Shown here: in pieces, positions 982-25,169 of the stretch
How the letters are laid out: each line of letters opens with the position of its first letter
How positions within the stretch are numbered: position 1 is the stretch's first letter
From: a virus
Taxonomy: Duplodnaviria; Heunggongvirae; Uroviricota; Caudoviricetes
Length of the DNA: 46,410 nucleotides
IMG/VR virus record: IMGVR_UViG_2721755497_000002
Location: 1-46,410 of that record
Direction: 5' to 3' (one strand)
Notes under the pieces: generated by a model
The model's input: the letters and a program-made list of their open reading frames with translations, nothing else
What the model was told of the DNA's origin: nothing
Database searches by the model: none
Translations under genes and position numbers: made by a program

Positions 982-1063
982 AAATTCAATCACTTACACA
1001 TCATTAAGTCAGTGACAAAAATCACACTTGGAATTACTTGGAATATTTTCTTGGAATATTTTC
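982..1063. repeat. attL candidate: tRNA 3' flank with tandem direct repeats (CTTGGAAT x3, including TTGGAATATTTTC x2) overlapping the int 3' end; possible arm-type Int binding sites
   Basis: Direct repeats visible at about 1027-1063, immediately between the tRNA and the integrase stop codon. Confidence 0.3.
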
Positions 1064-2059
1064 AGGTAACGGGACATCAAGTGTTGGTGAAACTTTAACC
1101 TTCCTGTCATAGATTAGCACTTGCCCTTCGGTTTTGTGACCAGAGAAAAGTTGCTTATCCCGGCTGCTTCCTTCATAGTCTGAAATTCCTTTCGCCTTCA
1201 GATCATGAAAGGTGAAGTCGGATAAAATACCTGAAATTTTTCCAGCACGATTTCTTGCTTCTACCCACATTTCGTTAAAGCCTTTGTACATATATCGGTT
1301 GCCGTATTGATTGCTGATCACATAGGCAGATTTTGGTAACTGTTTTGCTTTTTCGATCGCTGCCTGTAATCGTGGACTCCATGCTTTTATCTGTTTTTTT
1401 CCGGTTTTCCCTTGCTGGATGAATATCCCGTCGTTTCCAATCTGTTCCCATTTCAGCGATAACACATCGGAAACCCTCGCTGCACACAGATAGGCAATTT
1501 CCATTGCGATAAAAACAGGAAGAGGTGCAACGCTTAATACTGCCTGGTATTCTTTGTCGGTTACATATCGTTCGCGGTTTTTGGCCTTGAATTTACTTAC
1601 ACCTGCACATGGGTTAGCCTTGACGTACCCTCGCTCATACCCCCAACTGTAAACACGGGACATACTGCTTTTTTCATGGTTGGCTTGCGTTTTACTCTGC
1701 TCCCCTCTTTTGTCCATGTATCGACGGATGTGTTCTGGTTTTATGGAATCCGCTGGTACCTTACCGAATACGGCAAGCAACTTTTTTTGATGTTGCAGAT
1801 AATCTTTTTGTGTTCTTGGACTAAGGTCACTGTAATAGGCGCTGGCGAGGAATTTTTCCCACAAGCGACCGAATGTCATTGCACGATCGCGATTATTTAC
1901 AGTTTCCTCATACTTTTTCCATAAAGCAGCTAAACCATCCTTGATGGCGGTTAGTGTGACAGATTCTCTGGATGTTGGTTTCCATACATAACTATATTTA
2001 TTTGGGTATACATTTGGAGGTAATTTTTCGTGTTCAGGATTTTTCCTTCGTCTTCCCAT
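1034..2059 (-). CDS. int: Tyrosine integrase, lambda Int family
   Basis: 341-aa ORF; N-terminus MGRRRK...LPPN resembles lambda Int; directly adjacent to the tRNA integration site. Confidence 0.9.
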   Translation of the reverse strand: MGRRRKNPEHEKLPPNVYPNKYSYVWKPTSRESVTLTAIKDGLAALWKKYEETVNNRDRAMTFGRLWEKFLASAYYSDLSPRTQKDYLQHQKKLLAVFGKVPADSIKPEHIRRYMDKRGEQSKTQANHEKSSMSRVYSWGYERGYVKANPCAGVSKFKAKNRERYVTDKEYQAVLSVAPLPVFIAMEIAYLCAARVSDVLSLKWEQIGNDGIFIQQGKTGKKQIKAWSPRLQAAIEKAKQLPKSAYVISNQYGNRYMYKGFNEMWVEARNRAGKISGILSDFTFHDLKAKGISDYEGSSRDKQLFSGHKTEGQVLIYDRKVKVSPTLDVPLPENIPRKYSK

Positions 2060-5406: not shown

Positions 5407-5459
5407 GGGCGGCAGAGCAGTCACGGAGTAAAACTGATACCGCCAAACGTCACCAGAAA
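5407..5459 (-). ncRNA. dicF: DicF small RNA (Hfq-dependent, represses ftsZ)
   Basis: Reverse complement reads TTTCTGGTGACGTTTGGCGGTATCAGTTTTACTCCGTGACTGCTCTGCCGCCC followed by a U-tract; lies between ydfC and dicB as in Qin. Confidence 0.8.
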
Positions 5460-6622: not shown

Positions 6623-6901
6623 TTAGGGAAACTGGCGTCTTGCGTGGATCACGTTTACTACTTCAACGCTTGATGTTGTTACGCGGTATAGAATTATATA
6701 GTTAGGGTGGGCCACAATCTCACGCAAGCCAGGTACTCTGTCGCTTGGTGGGTATAAATACGGATGTTCGGATAATGGCAGCACACAACCCCTTAATCGC
6801 TGCCATAAGCGTTCAGCCGCATCTACGTCGAAACGAGCAATATAACTAGTTATATCATCTAGGTCGGTATCTGCGCTTTCAAGCCATAACACGGGTAACA
6901 T
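6623..6901 (-). CDS. ParE/RelE-family type II toxin (candidate)
   Basis: About 92 aa from internal Met (MLPVLWLESADTDLDDITSYIARF...IHARRQFP); size and composition typical of ParE/RelE toxins; start is 1 nt after the stop of the upstream small gene. Confidence 0.65.
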   Translation of the reverse strand: MLPVLWLESADTDLDDITSYIARFDVDAAERLWQRLRGCVLPLSEHPYLYPPSDRVPGLREIVAHPNYIILYRVTTSSVEVVNVIHARRQFP

Positions 6902-6902
6902 T

Positions 6903-7094
6903 TTACTGCTTGCTCCGTTCCTTCCGCATTTTAGCAAAGCGTTCTGCCATTCTGCGCTCAACTTCGTCATGGGGAATTGCTGGGCGCGGATCTGCAAGGC
7001 TTGTTGCTACTTTCGCACGCAGCCATTCGTTGTAACTGTTTTCTTGTTCAATGGTTTCAAATTCAGAAACCATTGGTGAAAGGGCTCTATTCAT
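6903..7094 (-). CDS. Cognate antitoxin candidate (small DNA-binding protein)
   Basis: 63 aa from internal Met (MNRALSPMVSEFETIEQENSYNEWLRAK...); GGAGG Shine-Dalgarno 4 nt upstream; immediately upstream of and coupled to the toxin gene. Confidence 0.55.
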   Translation of the reverse strand: MNRALSPMVSEFETIEQENSYNEWLRAKVATSLADPRPAIPHDEVERRMAERFAKMRKERSKQ

Positions 7095-13821: not shown

Positions 13822-14088
13822 TTTTATACCTTTTGTGTTGTGTGAACGATGAGTATAGTCAGAAATGAGACTGTGAAGGGGGATAGAAAATAATAGTTTG
13901 TTTTTGTAGAATCGCTGCGGGTGCTTGGGGCTATCTGTCTCAGGCATGAACACCAAAAGGCAGATAGAGAAAAGCCCCAGTTAACATTACGCGTCCGGCA
14001 AGACGCTTAACATTAATCTGAGGCCATATCTATGACTTGCACGCGTAGGTTAGCCTCTTACGTGCCGAAAGGCAAGGAGAAGCAGGCT

Positions 14089-14244
14089 ATGAAGCAGCAA
14101 AAGGCGATGTTAATCGCCCTGATCGTCATCTGTTTAACCGTCATAGTGACGGCACTGGTAACGAGGAAAGACCTCTGCGAGGTACGAATCCGAACCGGCC
14201 AGACGGAGGTCGCTGTCTTCACAGTCTACGAACCTGAGGAGTAA
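14089..14244 (+). CDS. hokD: Hok/Gef-family type I toxin
   Basis: Internal Met of ORF 14032..14244 gives MKQQKAMLIALIVICLTVIVTALVTRKDLCEVRIRTGQTEVAVFTVYEPEE, a near match to HokD/RelF as recalled; upstream in-frame extension is consistent with a mok-like leader. Confidence 0.8.
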   Translation: MKQQKAMLIALIVICLTVIVTALVTRKDLCEVRIRTGQTEVAVFTVYEPEE

Positions 14245-15747: not shown

Positions 15748-16125
15748 ATGACTGAACGCATAGAATTTGTTTTGCCTTACCCGCCGACGGTGAATACCTA
15801 CTGGCGACGTCATGGCAATACGTATTTCATCTCGGAGGCCGGAAAGCGTTATCGCCGTGATGTGGCGCTAATTGTTCGCCAGCAGCGGCTGAAATTAAAC
15901 CTGTCCGGAAGGCTGGCAATAAAAATTACTGCAGAGCCGCCGGATAAGCGCCGTCGGGACCTGGACAATATCCTGAAAGCACCGCTGGATGCACTGACGC
16001 ATGCGGGGCTTCTCATAGACGACGAGCAGTTTGATGAAATCAATATTGTGCGCGGTCAGCTCGTTCCTGGTGGGCGACTGGGCGTGAAGATTTGCGAAAT
16101 CAGAGGTGATGGTAATGGGGCGTGA
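15748..16125 (+). CDS. rusA: RusA Holliday junction resolvase
   Basis: 125 aa; motifs PPTVNTYWR and RRRDLDN...LDAL...AG match the RusA family. Confidence 0.85.
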   Translation: MTERIEFVLPYPPTVNTYWRRHGNTYFISEAGKRYRRDVALIVRQQRLKLNLSGRLAIKITAEPPDKRRRDLDNILKAPLDALTHAGLLIDDEQFDEINIVRGQLVPGGRLGVKICEIRGDGNGA

Positions 16126-16465
16126 TATGTATGAGGTTTTAGATCGCTGGGGGGCATGGGCTGCAGCAGAAAATAGCGGTGTCGATTGGCAACCGATAGC
16201 AGCGGGCTTCAAGGGGCTTTTGCCACATGGCAAAAAGTCACGTCTCCAGTGTGATGATGATGAAGGCATCATGATAGACGGTTGTGTGGCTCGGTTGCGA
16301 AAGTATAAACCAGAGGAATATGAGCTGCTCATAGCTCACTTTGTTATTGGTGTTTCTCTACGCTCAATCGCGAAGAAACGCAGGTGCTCAGATGGAACTA
16401 TAAGAAAGGAGCTGCAAACTGCATTAGGCTTTATTGATGGATGTATATGCTTGATTCTATCATAA
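16115..16465 (+). CDS. Late antiterminator Q (QuuD / phage 82 Q family)
   Basis: ORF 16106..16465; LDRWGAWAA...IAAGFKGL...RLQCDDDEG...DGCVARL resembles QuuD; likely start ATG 16115 after GAGGTGA. Confidence 0.75.
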   Translation: MGRDMYEVLDRWGAWAAAENSGVDWQPIAAGFKGLLPHGKKSRLQCDDDEGIMIDGCVARLRKYKPEEYELLIAHFVIGVSLRSIAKKRRCSDGTIRKELQTALGFIDGCICLILS

Positions 16466-16478
16466 GTTATGACTGTTA

Positions 16479-16865
16479 CTACTCGTTTGCTTGAGCTTTC
16501 GATTCGGCGTCAGATAAAGCATCAATACGAATATTTATGTTTTTTAATAGCTTATTGTCTAGATCGATAAGACATTGGTTGTAGTGCGCAATTTGGTCTG
16601 GTGTTAGGTTAGGGTTGGCCAGGCAGTTCGTGATGAATTTTCTGGCCGTTTTTATTTCCCTTTTCATTCTTACATCATTAAGCGTAGGCAAACCTATGTA
16701 AGCGATAAGAAGAATTACCACATGAGATAAGCCGACAGCAGCTCCAGGCGCCAATGATTTGAAGAAGGCTAATTGAGGAAGCCAGTCAAAAAGGAAATTC
16801 AATCCCGCAGTGATAAGGGTGGTAAACCATGCCTGCATTGCCAGGTAGGATTTAGTGTTCGCCAT
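16479..16865 (-). CDS. Uncharacterised membrane protein (cargo gene 3 of 3), two predicted TM helices plus helical C-terminus
   Basis: 128-aa ORF; hydrophobic segments WFTTLITAGLNFLF and VGLSHVVILLIAYIGL; start abuts stop of upstream gene; convergent with Q, 13-bp gap. Confidence 0.6.
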   Translation of the reverse strand: MANTKSYLAMQAWFTTLITAGLNFLFDWLPQLAFFKSLAPGAAVGLSHVVILLIAYIGLPTLNDVRMKREIKTARKFITNCLANPNLTPDQIAHYNQCLIDLDNKLLKNINIRIDALSDAESKAQANE

Positions 16866-17111
16866 TCACCTTCCTGCACTTGCTTCGTTGCGAGTTTTGA
16901 GTTCGCGTAGCAGTAGCGCCAACTCTTCTGCGTCATTTTCGTTTCTAACGCTGACTTTCCTTTTAGCGGTTCTGCCTTCAGGATCGGTGTAGGTTAGTTC
17001 AATATACGCATTCGGCTTTACCCAAACCAAGAACCTAAGCACAGCATATCTGACCGTCGCTGCGACAGCCATGAATACAGTGATGTAAAGCATAATGCTT
17101 AGGATTGACAT
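16866..17111 (-). CDS. Uncharacterised small membrane protein (cargo gene 2 of 3), one N-terminal TM helix
   Basis: 81-aa ORF; ILSIMLYITVFMAVAATV hydrophobic segment; translationally coupled to neighbours. Confidence 0.6.
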   Translation of the reverse strand: MSILSIMLYITVFMAVAATVRYAVLRFLVWVKPNAYIELTYTDPEGRTAKRKVSVRNENDAEELALLLRELKTRNEASAGR

Positions 17112-17114
17112 GAT

Positions 17115-18026
17115 TTAAAGTAGTTTCCTATCTGCCGCCGCTCTGTGGCGTATAACCTTAGTAATACTATAGCGTGGTTTAGACAGCGCGCCATTTGTTT
17201 CTTTTGTTGTTTCTGTCAGTTCTACAACAAAAAGATCACCCTTACAGAATGCTGCTTGGTTGTGTTCAACCCGTTCAAGAAAAGCCTCATCTTTCATAGA
17301 TGCGCTAACTTCTTCGCCATTTGGCAGGATGATATCCCAGCTTTTGCCTTGCTTGAATCGAACATTAGCAAAATGTACATTAGCTTGGCGTGTCGTTACG
17401 TGCGTTTTCTCGACAAAGGTGGATTTTGCAGTTTTAAAACTTACTGCTTCAGCTTGCGTCACCCTGACTACCTTATGCTTCTGCTGTGAAACTGAGAACG
17501 TGGATGGTTTTTCAGTCTGCAGGGGTTTATAGATTAATTTATCCAGTTCTTTTCGGATGATTGGACTGGTTATTAATTTTTGAATGTCGTTACTGCATTT
17601 AACCTTCTCACCATCCACTTCGATTTCTGCTGTATCTTTTTGTTCATCGACGACAATGGAGCTGATTTTACGCCCTTTGAGCCATTCGATTATCCCGAGT
17701 ACGCCACCTGCGGCAACTCCACCACCTGCAACGAGGCCAAGGGCGTTAATAGTTTTTATGCTCCCCATCACAGCAACAAGCAAAGTAAATGAACCTTCTT
17801 TTGTTGCCTTGATGTTGACTTTCGGCTCTGCTGTTTCGCCATTAATTATTTTTTCGGCGTGTTCAATCAGGGCACTAAGAGAGGTTAAGGCTTCGCCTAA
17901 TGTTTTCGCGTCGATCTGATTATCTGCGTATGCCTCTCCACCGTAGGCAATTTCGATTTCTGTTATTGGCATGTTTTCGAGTTGCTGCGTCATCAAAAGC
18001 ATCCTTTGCGCAAGAGAAATAGCCAC
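17115..18026 (-). CDS. Uncharacterised protein (cargo gene 1 of 3) with central Gly/Ala-rich hydrophobic segment
   Basis: 303-aa ORF (track start is GTG; probable true start ATG at 17993 after AAGGA, giving 292 aa); hydrophobic LLVAVMGSIKTINALGLVAGGGVAAGGVLGII; no recognisable catalytic motif. Confidence 0.6.
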   Translation of the reverse strand: MAISLAQRMLLMTQQLENMPITEIEIAYGGEAYADNQIDAKTLGEALTSLSALIEHAEKIINGETAEPKVNIKATKEGSFTLLVAVMGSIKTINALGLVAGGGVAAGGVLGIIEWLKGRKISSIVVDEQKDTAEIEVDGEKVKCSNDIQKLITSPIIRKELDKLIYKPLQTEKPSTFSVSQQKHKVVRVTQAEAVSFKTAKSTFVEKTHVTTRQANVHFANVRFKQGKSWDIILPNGEEVSASMKDEAFLERVEHNQAAFCKGDLFVVELTETTKETNGALSKPRYSITKVIRHRAAADRKLL

Positions 18027-18115
18027 AGGATACAGATAATTATGAAAAAATCACTAACGCGTACGCAAAAACTATCTTAATCTGTTAAGAGTGGTCGCTT
18101 CGCCACACAACTTAA

Positions 18116-18140
18116 ACCCGCATCAAGCGGTTTTTTTTGT
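18116..18140 (+). terminator. Weak intrinsic terminator (CCGCatcaaGCGG + T8) upstream of the tRNA cluster; possible tR'
   Basis: Short GC stem followed by eight T residues on the plus strand. Confidence 0.35.
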
Positions 18141-18243
18141 GCCACTTATCTCGGATAGACATGGTGAATGCGCTGGTGGAGGAGATAAGGGTGATTTTTG
18201 AATGCTTGCAACATTGATTTCGTAACGTTATTATCCTGCGCCC

Positions 18244-18675: not shown

Positions 18676-19104
18676 ATGTATTGCCGTGGTTTGCCAGTTC
18701 TTGTTTTGATATTCGCCTGCCTGGCAGCAGGCTGCACAAAAGATGTATCAACAAATTATCATGATAGTGCGCCATATCACGCAGGTGAATTAACAAAGGT
18801 TAAGAATGTTAATCCATCTGAAAGTACTGCTGATGTTAGTGAAGACATTCGTCATTATGCCGGTCAAATCAAAAAAGCCATTGAAGAACAGTTCAGGGAA
18901 CCGGGTAAGTATTCCGGGAAAGTGTGTTCACTGAGAATGAATATGGCTCCGAATGGTCTTCTGTTGCAGGTTAAAAGAGAAGGTGGAGACCCCGATTTAT
19001 GTCGTGAAGCGATGAATGCGGTGAAGCATGCTGATATACCAGCACCGCCGTCTCCGGAAGTATATAAAGTATTTCACAATGGAGTGCTGGATTTTAAACC
19101 GTGA
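18676..19104 (+). CDS. Lipoprotein carrying a TolA C-terminal (domain III)-like domain
   Basis: 142 aa; signal peptide with lipobox LAAGC; C-terminal 85 aa (YAGQIKKAIEEQF...GKVCSLRMNMAPNGLLLQVKREGGDPDLC...IPAPPSPEVYKVFHNGVLDFKP) closely parallels E. coli TolA domain III as recalled. Confidence 0.7.
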   Translation: MYCRGLPVLVLIFACLAAGCTKDVSTNYHDSAPYHAGELTKVKNVNPSESTADVSEDIRHYAGQIKKAIEEQFREPGKYSGKVCSLRMNMAPNGLLLQVKREGGDPDLCREAMNAVKHADIPAPPSPEVYKVFHNGVLDFKP

Positions 19105-19304
19105 TTCTACATCTTTGCAGTAAACAATAATCATAATTGCATGTTTTTTCTGTGGTGGGGCATTTGGCTTCTGTTGCCTGCGATGTATTGTGGACCTGGT
19201 ATCAGCCTGCAGAAAATGCACACAGGTGTGAAGTGTTAAATTCCTCACAACTCAGAACGCAGAATGTTGTCCTGCTTGCGGGGAATTTGTTAAAAGAGTA
19301 CAGC

Positions 19305-19423
19305 ATGGTGAATCCCCCTGAGCGGAGGGGCATAATGACAGATGTTTGGTCGTGTTATCGTATAGGCAAGTTGCGGATTCTGTCTGGTCATTGCAGAATT
19401 CACCGGGAGGCACCCGGCACCAT
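19305..19423. repeat. Repeat unit copy 1 (about 119 bp): ATGGTGAATCCCCCTGAGCGGAGGGGC ... CACCGGGAGGCACCCGGCACCAT with two GC-rich hairpins
   Basis: Termini shared with copy 2 and mutually reverse-complementary (ATGGTG / CACCAT). Confidence 0.45.
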
Positions 19424-19558
19424 GTATTTTCAATATGTTATTGATCATTCTCTTTTTCGGAATACTCTGGTTATGTTTTCCTGTAACTGATAATTAAATC
19501 ACATTTTGTGTAACTGCATATTGTCTGAACGGGATAAGTTTCAGTATCTTCTGAATGT

Positions 19559-19678
19559 ATGGCGAATCCCCCTGTGCGGCGGGGCGTACTGATTTAAGTA
19601 GTCATCCAAGAATGCAGCTGAATGAAAACGCGCTCCATATTAATCAGTGGTGGAGCACCGGGAGGCACCCGGCGCCAT
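19559..19678. repeat. Repeat unit copy 2 (about 120 bp): ATGGCGAATCCCCCTGTGCGGCGGGGC ... CACCGGGAGGCACCCGGCGCCAT
   Basis: Same terminal hairpin modules as copy 1, divergent interior. Confidence 0.45.
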
Positions 19679-19707
19679 ACCGATGATGAAAGTAAATGCG
19701 TCCATCC

Positions 19708-19732
19708 GCCCCTCTCCGGAGGGGCTTTTTTA
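19708..19732 (+). terminator. Strong rho-independent terminator (GCCCCTCtccgGAGGGGC + TTTTTT) upstream of nanS-p
   Basis: 7-bp GC stem, 4-nt loop, T-tract. Confidence 0.6.
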
Positions 19733-19913
19733 TGGGCAAAAAAAGCCCGCTACGAATGGTAACGGGCTGCACAAAATAACAAAATGTGAAGTATTCTAAT
19801 CAGCCGCTGAATAATACCCGACAGTAATTAATCTGTGCAACGGTGCTTTTTCCCGCCTTGCAGGCACCGACTCTCTCATTTGATTTAACGCATTATCCCG
19901 TCCGGGAGGATTC

Positions 19914-21857
19914 ATGACATTTAAATATTATGATGTGGTTTCGGCCAGAACAACTGATGAATTAAAGCGGAAACTGAACGAAAAAATCCGTGAAGGATGG
20001 CAGCCTTATGGAACAATATCTGTTTCATCTGTGAGTGGTACTGAAGACATATATCATCAGCCAGTTGCTGCTGAGGGGGAGGTGAGTACGCCGGTGATAC
20101 GTCCTGATGCCGGTGATGATTCATCTGTGGCCGTCTCCGGATCGCCTGATTATTACTACGTGGTGGTACTGGCGGGGCAGTCAAATGGCATGGCCTATGG
20201 TGAAGGGTTTCCGTTACCGGATTCATTTGACCGCCCGGACCCACGGATTAAGCAACTGGCACGCCGCAGCACGGTCACGCCAGGTGGTACGCCGTGTAAA
20301 TACAATGACATCATTCCGGCAGACCACTGCCTGCATGATGTGCAGGACATGAGCGGGATAAACCACCCAAAAGCTGACCTGAACAAGGGGCAGTATGGTT
20401 GTGTGAGTCAGGGGCTGCATATTGCCAAAAAACTGCTGCCTTATATCCCGCAGAATGCCGGGATACTTCTGGTGCCCTGTTGCCGTGGCGGGTCAGCATT
20501 CACCACCGGGCCGGACGGTTCATTCAGTGAGGCCAGCGGTGCTTCCGCTGATTCTTCACGCTGGGGAGTCGGTAAACCTCTGTATCAGGACCTGGTAAGC
20601 CGCACCAAAGTCGCGCTGGCGAAGAACCCGAAAAACAAACTTCTGGCTGTGGTCTGGATGCAGGGAGAGGCAGACCTTGCATCGGGAAGTCAGCAGCATA
20701 ATGGTTTATTCACTGCCATGGTTCAGCAGTTCAGAGCCGACCTGTCTCCGCTTGCTGCGCAGTGCGTGAGTGGAAATGCTGGCACGGTACCGTGGATTTG
20801 TGGTGATACCACGTATTACTGGAAAAACGCTGGCACCGATAAATATGAGGCGGTATACGGTGGCTACAAAGGCAAGGAAACTCAGAATATTTTCTTTGTA
20901 CCGTTCCTGACGGATGAGAATGGACAGAACACGCCAACGAATGCTCCGACGGAAGATCCGGATATTGTGGCTGTCGGGTATTACGGTGCGGCATCCCGTA
21001 CCCAGGGCAGTTTTGTCTCGACACAGCGTGACAGCCATTTCAGTTCATGGGCACGCAGGGGCATCATTTCTGACCGTCTGGCCTCCTCTATTCTGCTCCA
21101 TGCAGGGCGCACGGCTGAACTGCTGGGCGGGCAGGCCGTGACACCACCGGATGAGAAGCCATCACCTGACACTCCATCAACATCACCGGGTGAAACTACC
21201 GGGATGACAACACTGTTTGCATACAGGGCCAGCGATTCGGAAGGACAACTGACTCCACAGGGCTGGGGGGCTGGCGGAGGTAGTGCCGCTGTTGTGGATG
21301 ATGCCGGAGCCAGTGGAGGTAAGGCGATGAAGCTTACCAAAGCGACGGGAAAATCCTCCTGGTACCTGGAACATGATGCCGGTAATGGTGCCGACCTGCT
21401 GGGCAAAGGCGGCCTTGTCAGTTGTCGTTTTAAACTTGATGGCGCGCTTACGGCTAATCAGTACGCACTGGCGCTGTACTGGCCGGTTTCTGCCCTGCCA
21501 CAAGGGGTTACCCTGGAAGGTAATGCTGGTCATAACCTGCTGGCATCTTTTTACGTTCAGAGCGATGCGACAGACCTTAACGTGATGTACCACAAGGGCG
21601 ATACGGCGCAAAACATGAAACTGGGGTCATTCGGTGCATTTGACAACGAGTGGCATACGTTGGGCTTCCGTTTCGCCGGTAACAACAGTATTGAGGTGAC
21701 GCCGGTCATTGATGGTCAGGACGGGACGCCGTTCATGCTGTCGCAGTTACCTGTCGGTTCTTTTGCGGCAGACAAGTTGCGCGTGACCGATATTACCAGT
21801 GCAGCAACGTATCCGGTGCTGATTGACAGCATAGTGGTGGAAGTGAATAACGCGTAA
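19914..21857 (+). CDS. nanS: NanS-p-type sialate O-acetylesterase (DUF1737 N-domain + SGNH/SASA esterase domain)
   Basis: 647 aa; N-terminus MTFKYYDVVSARTTDELKRKLNEKIREGWQPYGTISVSS (DUF1737-like); GQSN motif (VLAGQSNGMAYGEG); position between tRNAs and lysis genes as in EHEC prophages. Confidence 0.8.
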   Translation: MTFKYYDVVSARTTDELKRKLNEKIREGWQPYGTISVSSVSGTEDIYHQPVAAEGEVSTPVIRPDAGDDSSVAVSGSPDYYYVVVLAGQSNGMAYGEGFPLPDSFDRPDPRIKQLARRSTVTPGGTPCKYNDIIPADHCLHDVQDMSGINHPKADLNKGQYGCVSQGLHIAKKLLPYIPQNAGILLVPCCRGGSAFTTGPDGSFSEASGASADSSRWGVGKPLYQDLVSRTKVALAKNPKNKLLAVVWMQGEADLASGSQQHNGLFTAMVQQFRADLSPLAAQCVSGNAGTVPWICGDTTYYWKNAGTDKYEAVYGGYKGKETQNIFFVPFLTDENGQNTPTNAPTEDPDIVAVGYYGAASRTQGSFVSTQRDSHFSSWARRGIISDRLASSILLHAGRTAELLGGQAVTPPDEKPSPDTPSTSPGETTGMTTLFAYRASDSEGQLTPQGWGAGGGSAAVVDDAGASGGKAMKLTKATGKSSWYLEHDAGNGADLLGKGGLVSCRFKLDGALTANQYALALYWPVSALPQGVTLEGNAGHNLLASFYVQSDATDLNVMYHKGDTAQNMKLGSFGAFDNEWHTLGFRFAGNNSIEVTPVIDGQDGTPFMLSQLPVGSFAADKLRVTDITSAATYPVLIDSIVVEVNNA

Positions 21858-21988
21858 GCAGGACAAAAAAATGCCGCCGGGAAAGGGAAAACAAGGAAAC
21901 CGGCGGCAAAGGTCGTCACATCTAAAGCAAAAATGCAGGACGCCTTTTTAACCAACAGGTATTAACGATGTCAACACCATGTCGATAA

Positions 21989-22177
21989 TTGGGAGGGATA
22001 ATGACATTTTTACAGCTTATTTTATTGTATTTCTGTACGGCGGTGTGTGCACTGTATCTGGTGAGTGGTGGGTACAAAATTATACGCAACTACATCCGTA
22101 AAAAGATTGATGCCATGGCGGCTGAAAAAATCAGTGCCGGTCAGTCAGCAGAGCCAAAGTCCACGTCCCTCCCGTAA
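21989..22177 (+). CDS. Hypothetical small membrane protein
   Basis: 62-aa ORF with hydrophobic N-terminus FLQLILLYFCTAVCALYLV. Confidence 0.35.
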   Translation: MGGIMTFLQLILLYFCTAVCALYLVSGGYKIIRNYIRKKIDAMAAEKISAGQSAEPKSTSLP

Positions 22178-22202
22178 TCACATCTCACAGCGAGAAAAAA
22201 CC

Positions 22203-22508
22203 ATGACAGAAATGAAAAAACTGGTCACTGCTGATGCAGTGAAGTCAGCGCTGCGCACTGAAGAAGTCCGCGGGACGCTGAAAGCATCTATCCGTAAAAC
22301 GTTTGAGGCTCAGATTGATGCGGATGTGGAAGCGATTCTGGATGAGCTTATCGGACCTGCTGAGGGGGCATCTGCGCCACAGGTAGGGGATGGTGAGAAT
22401 ACAGCAGACTCTCCGGTGGAAAACAGCAGCGAACAACCTGAGGCACAACCCGCTGCTGGAGAACAACCAGCTGATGTACTGCAGCCTGAACCAGCGACCA
22501 TGCTGTGA
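22203..22508 (+). CDS. Hypothetical acidic protein upstream of holin
   Basis: Internal Met ([14 protein letters not shown]...) of ORF 22065..22508; about 101 aa. Confidence 0.45.
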
Positions 22509-22585
22509 TACATGACGCACAGGCCACCAGCATATCGCGGTGGTCTTTTATTATCGTGCGCTTCCGGTTAACGGGAGGCGGGGAT

Positions 22586-22801
22586 ATGTACCAGATGGAA
22601 AAAATCACAACAGGTGTGTCATACACCACGTCTGCGGTGGGGACGGGATACTGGTTTCTGCAGTTGCTGGACAGGGTATCCCCGTCTCAGTGGGCGGCAA
22701 TAGGCGTGCTGGGGAGTCTGCTGTTTGGTCTGCTGACGTACCTGACCAACCTGTATTTTAAAATCAGAGAGGACCGGCGCAAGGCGGCGCGGGGAGAATG
22801 A
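22586..22801 (+). CDS. Holin, phage 21 S21-like pinholin with dual-start motif
   Basis: 71 aa [26 protein letters not shown]...[22 protein letters not shown] resembles S21; GGGAGG Shine-Dalgarno; two Met within first four codons. Confidence 0.8.
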
Positions 22802-22805
22802 ACTG

Positions 22806-23339
22806 GTGAGTAAAAAACTCCGCTACGGTTTATCTGCGATCGTTCTGGCGCTGATTGCCACAGGTGCTTCTGCGCCTGAAATCCTTGACCAGTTTCTGGA
22901 TGAAAAGGAAGGTAACCACACCACGGCATACCGTGATGGCGCGGGTATCTGGACTGTCTGCCGGGGAGCCACTCGGGTGGATGGCAGACCTGTAGTTCCC
23001 GGTATGAAGCTGACGAAGGAAAAATGCGCTCAGGTTAATGCCATTGAACGGGATAAGGCACTGGCATGGGTGGAGAAAAATATCAGAGTGCCACTGACCG
23101 AACCGCAGAAAGCGGGGATAGCGTCATTCTGCCCGTACAACATTGGTCCCGGTAAGTGTTTTCCGTCGACGTTTTATAAACGAATTAATGCAGGTGATCG
23201 AAAAGGTGCCTGTGAGGCGATTCGCTGGTGGATTAAGGATGGTGGCAGAGACTGCCGTATTCGCTCAAACAACTGCTACGGTCAGGTGTCCCGTCGTGAC
23301 CAGGAGAGCGCGCTGGCGTGCTGGGGAATCGACAGATAA
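22806..23339 (+). CDS. SAR endolysin (T4 lysozyme-like muramidase with N-terminal signal-anchor-release domain)
   Basis: 177 aa; GTG start; N-terminal Gly/Ala-rich hydrophobic SAR segment LSAIVLALIATGASA; resembles phage 21 R21. Confidence 0.85.
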   Translation: MSKKLRYGLSAIVLALIATGASAPEILDQFLDEKEGNHTTAYRDGAGIWTVCRGATRVDGRPVVPGMKLTKEKCAQVNAIERDKALAWVEKNIRVPLTEPQKAGIASFCPYNIGPGKCFPSTFYKRINAGDRKGACEAIRWWIKDGGRDCRIRSNNCYGQVSRRDQESALACWGIDR

Positions 23340-23430
23340 GCAGAATATTTTGCTGAAAAATGCCGTTTGCTCACGCGGGTGGATAACACGATATTCTGCG
23401 AACTGGCAAAAGGTAAGTGAATAAAAGTAA

Positions 23431-23462
23431 AAACCCCGTTTGTTGGCTGCAAGCGGGGTTTT
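23431..23462 (+). terminator. Hairpin AAACCCCG...CGGGGTTT with T-tract inside the lysis cassette (candidate terminator/attenuator)
   Basis: GC stem with long loop followed by TTTTG. Confidence 0.35.
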
Positions 23463-23498
23463 GTGTTTCCTGACTCCGGAAAAGTCAAAGGAGAAAGT

Positions 23499-23636
23499 GT
23501 GTTTGATTTTAGCAAACTGATTCGGGAGATTCGAGTGATGGCTGAAAAATTATCCACCTGGAAGTTCATCCTTATCTGGCTGGTGTTTGTGATTATGGCC
23601 TCCGGTTATTTCATCGGTCAGATACGCTGGTGGTGA
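23499..23636 (+). CDS. Possible small membrane protein between endolysin and Rz (45 aa, [45 protein letters not shown])
   Basis: GTG start 5 nt after AGGAG; stop 1 nt before Rz ATG; one predicted TM helix; not in ORF track. Confidence 0.35.
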
Positions 23637-23637
23637 A

Positions 23638-24105
23638 ATGAACCGCGTTCTGTGTGTGATCATCATTGCCCTGCTGGTGGCCTGTGGTGTGCTGTGGGTG
23701 GCAACAGACTATTACCGCGATAATGCCATCACCTACAAGGCGCAGCGCGATAAAAAAGCCAGGGAGCTGCGGCTGGCAAACGCAACCATTACTGACATGC
23801 AGCAGCGTCAGCGTGATGTTGCTGCACTCGATGCAAAATACACAAAGGAGTTAGCCGATGCGAGAGCTGAAAATGAAACTCTGCGCGTTGATGTTGCCGC
23901 TGGTCGTAAGCGCCTGCGGGTCAACGCCACCTGTGTGTCCGCCACAGACAAAAACACCAGAACCGCCAGCGTGGATAATGCAGCCCGCCCCAGACTGGCA
24001 GACGCCGCTGAACGGAATTATTTCACTCTCAGCGACCGGCTGATGACGATGCAGAAGCAGCTGGAAGGGGCGCAGGAATATATCCGCGCTCAGTGCCTGA
24101 AATAA
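23638..24105 (+). CDS. Rz i-spanin
   Basis: 155 aa; N-terminal TM helix, coiled-coil-rich periplasmic domain; Rz1 embedded in +1 frame. Confidence 0.8.
23873..24043 (+). CDS. Rz1 o-spanin lipoprotein (embedded in Rz)
   Basis: Internal Met of ORF 23858..24043: [32 protein letters not shown]... lipobox VVSAC, proline-rich. Confidence 0.7.
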
Positions 24106-25169
24106 GTTTTGCTGATGCGCAGTATCGTCGCCGTATTCCCGCATTAACAGAGACCGCAGCCCTTGCGGGATACTCCTCTGCGCGAGTGTGCGGGAATAAT
24201 CAGAAACGATGCACGCCGGGTTTTGCAGCGCGAACTGAACGGGGCGCGGATTGTACCCTCATAATCGCCCATCCGGTGCGATGGTGGAAGAAACCGGAAT
24301 GATGAATTGTGAATGCAAAATATGGTTCTGCATTGAATAATACTGGCATTGTTTCCTGTTTACATCCAGAACATATTTAAATATGCCTGCCTGGGACAGA
24401 GTAAGATGGCTACGGAAAAAAGGTATGCTACCGGATAAATGTTTTTTGATAACCAGTTTTGTCCAGATATTGTTTGATCTGTGGTTTATATAAACTGGTC
24501 TTTTTTGGGTCTGTACCGTGATCATACTATGGTTATGTGTGGTAAACCGTATATTTCCTGTAGACAGGAAATAAAAACAATGCGAGATATCATTTTTTTT
24601 AAGATAGTCAGTGACGGAAATAATATCGCTATTGTGTGATGAAATAAGCAAGGATATAACAGAGCTAAGCCGGTTGTTCTCTGTGGTGACACAATCTGGT
24701 GGCGATAAATCAGAATGCGTGATGTAAAGATTAAGCATGTAAAACCATGGTGTTTAACTGAAGGTTACTGTGCGGCGGGAAAATAATGAAGTGAAAAGGT
24801 AATGTCTATTTGTTATTTTCGCATGATAAAGCAGAGGTATTATTTTTTTTGCTAATTTATTCTTTTGATATATCTTATCTGTATTTGTGGTTGATTGTAA
24901 ACCACTATTGCAACTGACATCGTCAGCAATGTTGCATACTCATTCAGGTACAACATGGCGTGGAAGAAAGAATGCAGGTATCAAGATATTTGAGTGGATG
25001 ATAAAAAAAGCCGCAGGTGGTATGCGGCATGAAATGGCACGAATTAGTGGATGTATCTTTTCTCGTTTGTATTTTTATCTTATTTCCTGAGGTGTAATCA
25101 ATTCGAAAAATACGTGAGAACAGAGCGTGTATTTTCGACCTTTTTATGGGTCCTCCTGGTGGGGTGGCC

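Follow-up and report, generated by a model that had tools for sequence, protein, structure and literature searches.

A predicted phage 21-type pinholin and SAR-endolysin lysis cassette in a lambdoid prophage of Escherichia coli strain M3

By which route would the virus encoded on this DNA open its host cell? The window analyzed here, the whole 46,410-nucleotide stretch of the IMG/VR virus record IMGVR_UViG_2721755497_000002, carries at 22586-23339 two adjacent open reading frames. The original prediction, made from the sequence alone, read them as an S21-like holin followed by a lysozyme with a signal-anchor-release (SAR) N-terminus, and proposed the pinholin/SAR pathway rather than lambda-type large-hole lysis. 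Its coordinates proved exact (a 71-aa ORF at 22586-22801 and a 177-aa ORF at 22806-23339), and the RefSeq record NZ_CP010183.1 carries the same two ORFs, labeled 'class II holin family protein' and 'lysozyme'. Analysis of the surrounding region revealed that they open a longer unit, 22586-24105, very probably a lambdoid prophage's lysis cassette within the late operon, similar in type to those of the Stx phages (933W, H-19B) and of K-12 Qin, working by a phage-21-like pinholin/SAR mechanism. The genes and features of this cassette are the following.

22586-22801, plus strand: holin S, class II, S21 family, 71 aa (MYQM...), with ATG at 22586 and TGA at 22799-22801
ATG at 22595, plus strand: second holin start, Met4, which would give a 68-aa form (dual-start motif)
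22806-23339, plus strand: endolysin R, 177 aa, T4-type (GH24) lysozyme of the 933W R / Qin RrrQ type, with a GTG start 4 nt past the holin stop
22806-22874, plus strand: predicted N-terminal signal-anchor-release segment of the lysozyme, residues 1-23, MSKKLR followed by YGLSAIVLALIATGASA, then Pro24
22908-22955, plus strand: catalytic triad region of the lysozyme, E35-X8-D44-X5-T50, aligned with the R21 triad
23638-24105, plus strand: Rz i-spanin, 155 aa, with an N-terminal transmembrane domain (TMD) (PF03245, E=2.6e-48; phrog_13)
23873-24043, plus strand: Rz1 o-spanin lipoprotein, lipobox VSAC, in the +1 frame of Rz (PF06085, E=2.9e-19; phrog_3198)

The window is 100% identical to positions 4074694-4121103 of the chromosome of the mouse E. 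coli strain M3 (NZ_CP010183.1), and is a lambdoid prophage of that strain lying beside tRNA-Ser and mtfA. Its late region begins with the antiterminator gene Q, two opposite-strand genes, a 36-aa Q fragment, three tRNAs and a gene for a TolA C-terminal domain protein. It continues with a nanS-p-like SASA esterase, DUF1378, DUF826, the holin, the lysozyme, Rz/Rz1 and an opposite-strand DUF1398 gene, and ends with lambda-like terminase, portal, head and tail genes. The prediction had singled out the lysis genes as differing from the lambda-like morphogenesis genes, a combination that is ordinary lambdoid mosaicism. Upstream of the cassette, the late region contains the following features.

Within 16115-18201: Q antiterminator, intact, 116 aa, matching PF06530 positions 2-112 of 118
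16479-16865 and 17115-17993, opposite strand: two genes after Q with no Pfam match
18091-18201: 'antiterminator' fragment, 36 aa, just before the tRNAs
18676-19104, plus strand: TolA C-terminal domain protein, 142 aa (PF06519, E=2e-23)
22001-22177, plus strand: DUF1378 gene, 58 aa, with an N-terminal TMD, directly upstream of the holin region
22203-22508, plus strand: DUF826 gene, acidic product of 101 aa, immediately upstream of the holin

The late promoter region seems to be put together from two Q modules. We considered that Q had been split by an insertion, silencing the cassette, and rejected this idea: the 116-aa Q spans PF06530 2-112/118, and the 36-aa piece is the remnant of a second Q.

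Whether the cassette still operates in strain M3 is a matter of activity in this host and not of the type of lysis system. According to RefSeq, the integrase gene (1009-2059, minus strand) and the tail-fibre gene (44098-45505, plus strand) are frameshifted pseudogenes, and because of this the prophage may have lost the ability to excise or to form infective particles. If the prophage is defective, the cassette may never be expressed in its host, which would leave it an inert remnant in a decaying prophage, with pinholin/SAR-type genes no longer expressed or used. The 36-aa fragment of a second Q upstream of the tRNAs, and the two opposite-strand genes standing between the intact Q and the late region, point the same way as the two frameshifts. 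On the other side, all five lysis ORFs are intact and have good ribosome-binding sites, Q is full length, and the head and tail genes look complete. We regard an inert remnant as unlikely, while giving it real weight.

Pinholins of the S21 type form holes of about 2 nm, which depolarize the membrane but keep back a cytoplasmic endolysin. By homology to phage 21, whose mechanism is covered by reviews (PMC6116005, PMC9636201), we infer the export, tethering, hole size, triggering and activation in an expressed cassette as follows. First, the host Sec system would export the lysozyme, and an uncleaved, weakly hydrophobic N-terminus would tether the inactive enzyme to the inner membrane. Secondly, the holin, with its two TMDs, would build up in the membrane. 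Thirdly, the weakly hydrophobic TMD1 would exit the bilayer, and oligomers of TMD2 would form nanometre-scale pinholes through which the proton-motive force collapses. Depolarization would then free the N-terminal segment of the lysozyme, which would refold into the enzyme body, and the active enzyme would degrade the murein. Finally, the Rz/Rz1 spanins would disrupt the outer membrane. In this way the prophage would lyse its host like the Stx phages, by depolarizing the membrane and setting free a lysozyme exported beforehand. This reading is supported by homology, topology arithmetic, a structure model, co-occurrence across related loci and published work on the 933W R protein, and the choice of the pinholin/SAR pathway over lambda-type lysis made in the original prediction stands on these.

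The lysozyme gene has a GGGGAG Shine-Dalgarno sequence 9 nt upstream of its GTG. Its product matched PF00959 (E=1.3e-24) and the PHROG endolysin family phrog_7 (E=8e-63), while in NCBIfam only a sub-threshold GTA-endolysin match came up for it, and neither the holin nor the spanins nor the small ORFs had a model. Antisense ORFs lying inside 22586-23339 are without support. Sequence matches in the PDB comprised the FAHEc1 endolysin (7M5I), R21 (3HDE, 7e-17, and 3HDF, ~1e-16) and RrrD of DLP12 (4ZPU). Identity amounted to 94% with 933W R, 86% with K-12 RrrQ and 34% with R21; by sequence, the enzyme is of the 933W/Qin type and not a close relative of R21. The S21 and R21 references came from the phage 21 genome OL657228, in which the antiholin S21-71, the pinholin S21-68, the SAR endolysin and the spanins are annotated. 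All of 42 lysozyme homologues keep E35, D44 and the eight cysteines, and at least 90% of them keep T50.

The N-terminus of the lysozyme presents three basic residues (K3, K4 and R6) and then 17 uncharged residues, ten of which are G, A, S or T (5 Ala, 2 Gly, 2 Ser, 1 Thr). The description of this N-terminus as Gly/Ala-rich was therefore roughly right, except that the stretch is poorer in Gly than the SAR domain of R21 and falls short of its 20 residues. SAR endolysin N-termini have been defined as two to three basic residues ahead of a TMD composed mainly of weakly hydrophobic ones (PMC9239132), and the window lysozyme fits this definition. Crude dGapp values were +1.8 (17-mer) and +3.8 (19-mer) for the lysozyme segment, +0.15 (17-mer) and +0.8 (19-mer) for the R21 segment, and -4.4 (19-mer) for the TMD of the neighbouring Rz, a true anchor. 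The segment is conserved in Enterobacteriaceae homologues, from Escherichia, Salmonella, Klebsiella, Citrobacter and others, while its C-terminal motif varies among them between GASAP, GAPAS and GAPAP.

An AlphaFold (AF2) model of the lysozyme, built from a shallow alignment of 42 sequences 73-94% identical to the query, reached a mean pLDDT of 82 and a pTM of 0.80. In this model, residues 11-30 (pLDDT ~94) are part of the fold. In Foldseek, the alignment between the model and full-length active R21 (3HDE) covered 180-182 columns, that with the truncated form (3HDF) 140, and the probability was 1.00 for both 3HDE and 4ZPU. The R protein of 933W, kept as a SAR endolysin stock by the Young laboratory (PMC9239132), has been studied directly: expressed alone it is mostly inactive, with a small fraction of cells turning into spheres, and significantly more cells do so when the Mu releasin gp25, which furthers release of the enzyme, is co-expressed (Chamblee et al. 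2022, PMC9239132).

The same N-terminus can be read in another way. On its letters alone, the 17-residue stretch ending in A-S-A resembles a cleavable signal peptide, with MSKKLR as n-region, a short 17-residue h-region and the small residues T-G-A-S-A as c-region. The lysozyme would then be secreted in the conventional way, through a Sec signal peptide that can be cleaved off, as is Lys44 of Oenococcus phage fOg44, and would not be a tethered SAR enzyme, its activity being restrained otherwise until the holin depolarizes the membrane. Some homologues carry A-P-A-S or A-S-A-S in place of A-S-A-P, and those variants could be cleavable. In the window enzyme, however, A-S-A runs directly into Pro24, and proline at +1, which blocks signal peptidase I, would block cleavage here. 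The segment is also strongly conserved and is modeled within the folded enzyme at high local confidence, and 933W R, whose N-terminus is almost identical, behaves as a tethered, releasable enzyme (PMC9239132). Conventional secretion of the lysozyme thus appears very unlikely, and the evidence argues for an N-terminus that serves as an uncleaved, releasable anchor.

Regarding the likeness to R21, the two enzymes share the fold, the triad and a basic N-terminus followed by a weakly hydrophobic segment. They differ in the length of the SAR stretch (17 residues in the window lysozyme and 20 in R21), in the number of cysteines (eight and four, respectively) and in a 7-residue Cys-containing insertion near the C-terminus of the window enzyme. 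The comparison to S21/R21 that the prediction had called for came out well for the holin (79% identity) and for the triad, which aligns; it did not extend to the whole lysozyme (34%), whose SAR segment is not alignable with that of R21. This last result counts against the pinholin/SAR reading, and because of the low identity and the unalignable segment we only infer that the enzyme works like R21. A second reference is Lyz of P1, likewise a T4-type lysozyme, exported by Sec through an N-terminal SAR segment, as the window enzyme would be; the window model is a distant fold match to its structure 1XJT. P1 Lyz has a cysteine in the SAR segment and another at the second triad position, whereas the window lysozyme has no cysteine in residues 1-51 and an aspartate (Asp44) as second triad residue. 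The missing cysteine in the N-terminal segment excludes the disulfide-caging switch of P1 Lyz and, together with the aspartate in the triad, means that the P1 thiol-isomerization switch cannot apply.

The 71-aa holin matched Pfam PF04971 (Bacteriophage P21 holin S) with E=9e-33 and 112.5 bits (cut-off 26), as well as PHROG holin families (E=2e-40); neither this ORF nor that of the lysozyme is a chance one. The holin shares 70 of 71 residues (99%) with the S protein of 933W, and is 79% identical both to S21 and to K-12 EssQ, which confirms the S21-like character first proposed for it. Of the 15 residues that differ from S21, 12 lie in the N-terminal extension, TMD1 and the loop, and three in TMD2, where all changes are conservative (L46V, F47L, L49F). 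The holin shares with S21 the family, the two-TMD layout, G40, S44 and G48, and an identical C-terminal tail. TMD1 of S21 is known to leave the membrane. Crude sums on the Hessa biological scale (Hessa et al. 2005), a composition argument only, gave +6.2 kcal/mol for TMD1 and +0.8 kcal/mol for TMD2 of the window holin, as against +6.4 and +1.0 for S21; on sequence composition, TMD1 is as marginal as its S21 counterpart.

That this holin makes large lambda-like holes despite its S21 ancestry, leaving the N-terminal segment of the lysozyme redundant, is extremely improbable: P1 pairs a SAR endolysin with a canonical holin (PMC6116005), and no other support for it was found, whereas the window holin has 79% identity with S21, its TMD2 hardly differs, its TMD1 is just as marginal, and it has none of the three-TMD architecture of lambda S.

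The pairing of holin and lysozyme was followed through 237 IMG/VR loci, each with an S21-family holin of one of three subtypes. In 217 of them, the holin has a lysozyme ORF of 140 aa or more downstream. All 217 are T4-type lysozymes in which the catalytic Glu stands near residue 35 and the N-terminus has an uncharged stretch, a count that overstates independence since many of the loci are near-duplicates. The uncharged stretch measures at least 18 residues in 216 of these loci and 13 in the remaining one, and it contains a cysteine in only one locus. Enzymes of the lambda R type or of the unextended P22 type were found in none of the 217 loci. Published surveys agree with this picture: about 99% of Stx phages have a predicted SAR endolysin plus pinholin (PMC8136144), and the holins of Stx2a phages are pinholins of the P21 S family (PMC10462455). 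The pathway was rightly presented from the outset as an established mechanism; the module is already well described and the system already known.

The one detail of the cassette that departs from the phage 21 paradigm, shared with 933W, is the uncharged long form of the holin. The dual-start motif named in the original prediction is present, as Met1 and Met4, and conserved: in a 38-sequence alignment of the holin family, every member has M1 and at least 90% have M4, a pattern that speaks for the importance of both starts. Reviews put the antiholin behavior of S21-71, like that of lambda S107, down to an additional positively charged residue (PMC9636201). The extension of S21 is Met-Lys-Ser, with the extra positive charge, whereas that of the window holin is Met-Tyr-Gln, with a net charge of 0, so that the basic residue defining the S21-71 antiholin is absent from it, as it is from 933W. 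Both kinds of extension are found among 120 database representatives, the basic ones being MYR (20), MKS (18), MLR (6), MK (4), MMK (3), MHR (2) and MKF (1), and the non-basic ones MYQ (34), MDQ (4), MNQ (3), MFQ (2) and MHQ (1). MYQ could lie one base from MYR (Arg CGG to Gln CAG).

One consequence may be that the long form of this widespread MYQ-type allele, which 933W and H-19B also have, has lost the antiholin charge and that timing in cassettes of the Stx-phage type is not set by a holin/antiholin pair, and could depend on small membrane proteins such as the DUF1378 protein or a 45-aa ORF of the phrog_6632 family in the gap between R and Rz. In sampled viral loci, DUF1378 lies upstream of MYQ-type holins in 32 of 74 cases and of other types in 0 of 118. 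Considered together, the DUF1378 and DUF826 genes are confined in this sample to loci with MYQ-type holins, where they lie upstream of the holin (32-33 of 74), with 0 of 116 loci for the MKS, MYR, MLR and MHR types and none at two MDQ loci. This co-occurrence may reflect shared ancestry of the whole late region, and we hold the timing proposal to be doubtful. Published work on the dual start of Stx-phage holins was searched for, and nothing relevant turned up. The same antiholin question arises for the well-studied alleles of 933W and H-19B as much as for the window.

A predicted RNA element lies just upstream of the holin.

22559-22580, plus strand: predicted RNA hairpin (CGCUUCC / GGAGGCG) with a 7-bp stem, which would sequester the GGGAGG Shine-Dalgarno sequence (22573-22578) of holin Met1

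The stem recurs in 933W. Its fold energy is not significant in the window (z = -1.5), in 933W (-0.4) or in phage 21 (-1.1), and a scan of 21800-24300 at the Rfam gathering threshold gave no match. We retain this hairpin as a lead only.

Downstream of the lysozyme, the two spanin genes complete the cassette. Rz1, which has an alternative upstream ATG at 23858, is embedded in Rz and is without annotation in the RefSeq record of the strain. The R-Rz gap of 297 bp contains two further elements.

23430-23462, plus strand: terminator-like hairpin, 14 pairs and then a T-rich tail
23499-23636, plus strand: unannotated 45-aa ORF with a single TMD and a GTG start after AGGAG (phrog_6632, E=1.4e-29)

The stop of the 45-aa ORF overlaps the Rz start (TGAAATG). 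Protein-level conservation of the ORF extends over 53 phage records, with identities as low as 50%. Its homologues occupy the R-Rz position in Stx phages and in Salmonella SPN3UB, and in Salmonella SEN34 and Pseudomonas YMC11/02/R656 they are surrounded by tail or baseplate genes, the homologues in these three named phages being 50-67% identical. A role as a lysis-specific gene, which we had considered, is weakened by the homologues among tail and baseplate genes; given these non-lysis contexts, the ORF looks like a mobile, moron-like small gene and not a dedicated lysis gene.

Comparison of the gene arrangements places the cassette next to that of 933W. The window shares with 933W, and with H-19B, the MYQM holin start, a nearly identical holin, a lysozyme close to 933W R and the 4-nt S-R spacing. 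As in 933W, a nanS-p-like esterase lies upstream and Rz/Rz1 downstream; the window adds DUF1378 and DUF826 upstream, and the R-Rz gap, which carries ant in 933W, holds the hairpin and the 45-aa membrane ORF instead. The S and R genes, which overlap in phage 21, stand 4 nt apart in the window. In K-12 Qin, RrrQ has the same N-terminal segment as the window lysozyme, while EssQ starts with MKSM and its basic residue in place of MYQM, ydfR lies between the holin and the lysozyme, and the spanin belongs to another family (DUF2514 RzpQ). The pathway bears on how toxin and phages are released in E. coli; otherwise the assignment matters mainly for correct annotation.

Several observations concern the rest of the element. 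There are no stx genes in the window, and the TolA C-terminal domain gene sits in the corresponding region, downstream of the tRNAs, at the position of stx in Stx phages; the late region of phage 21 has a TonB C-terminal domain gene. Two copies of a small RNA lie between this TolA-like gene and the nanS-p-like esterase gene.

19274-19478 and 19529-19737, plus strand: STnc100 sRNA family, two tandem copies (Rfam RF02076, 119 and 98 bits)

The window also contains a set of Qin-like cargo, with a DicF sRNA and dicB, a hokD/sok locus, a second Hok/Gef gene and a RelE/RelB pair; the coordinates of the set are 5407-5458 (minus strand), 13919-14094 (plus), 14089-14244 (plus), 43816-43956 (plus) and 6623-7094 (minus).
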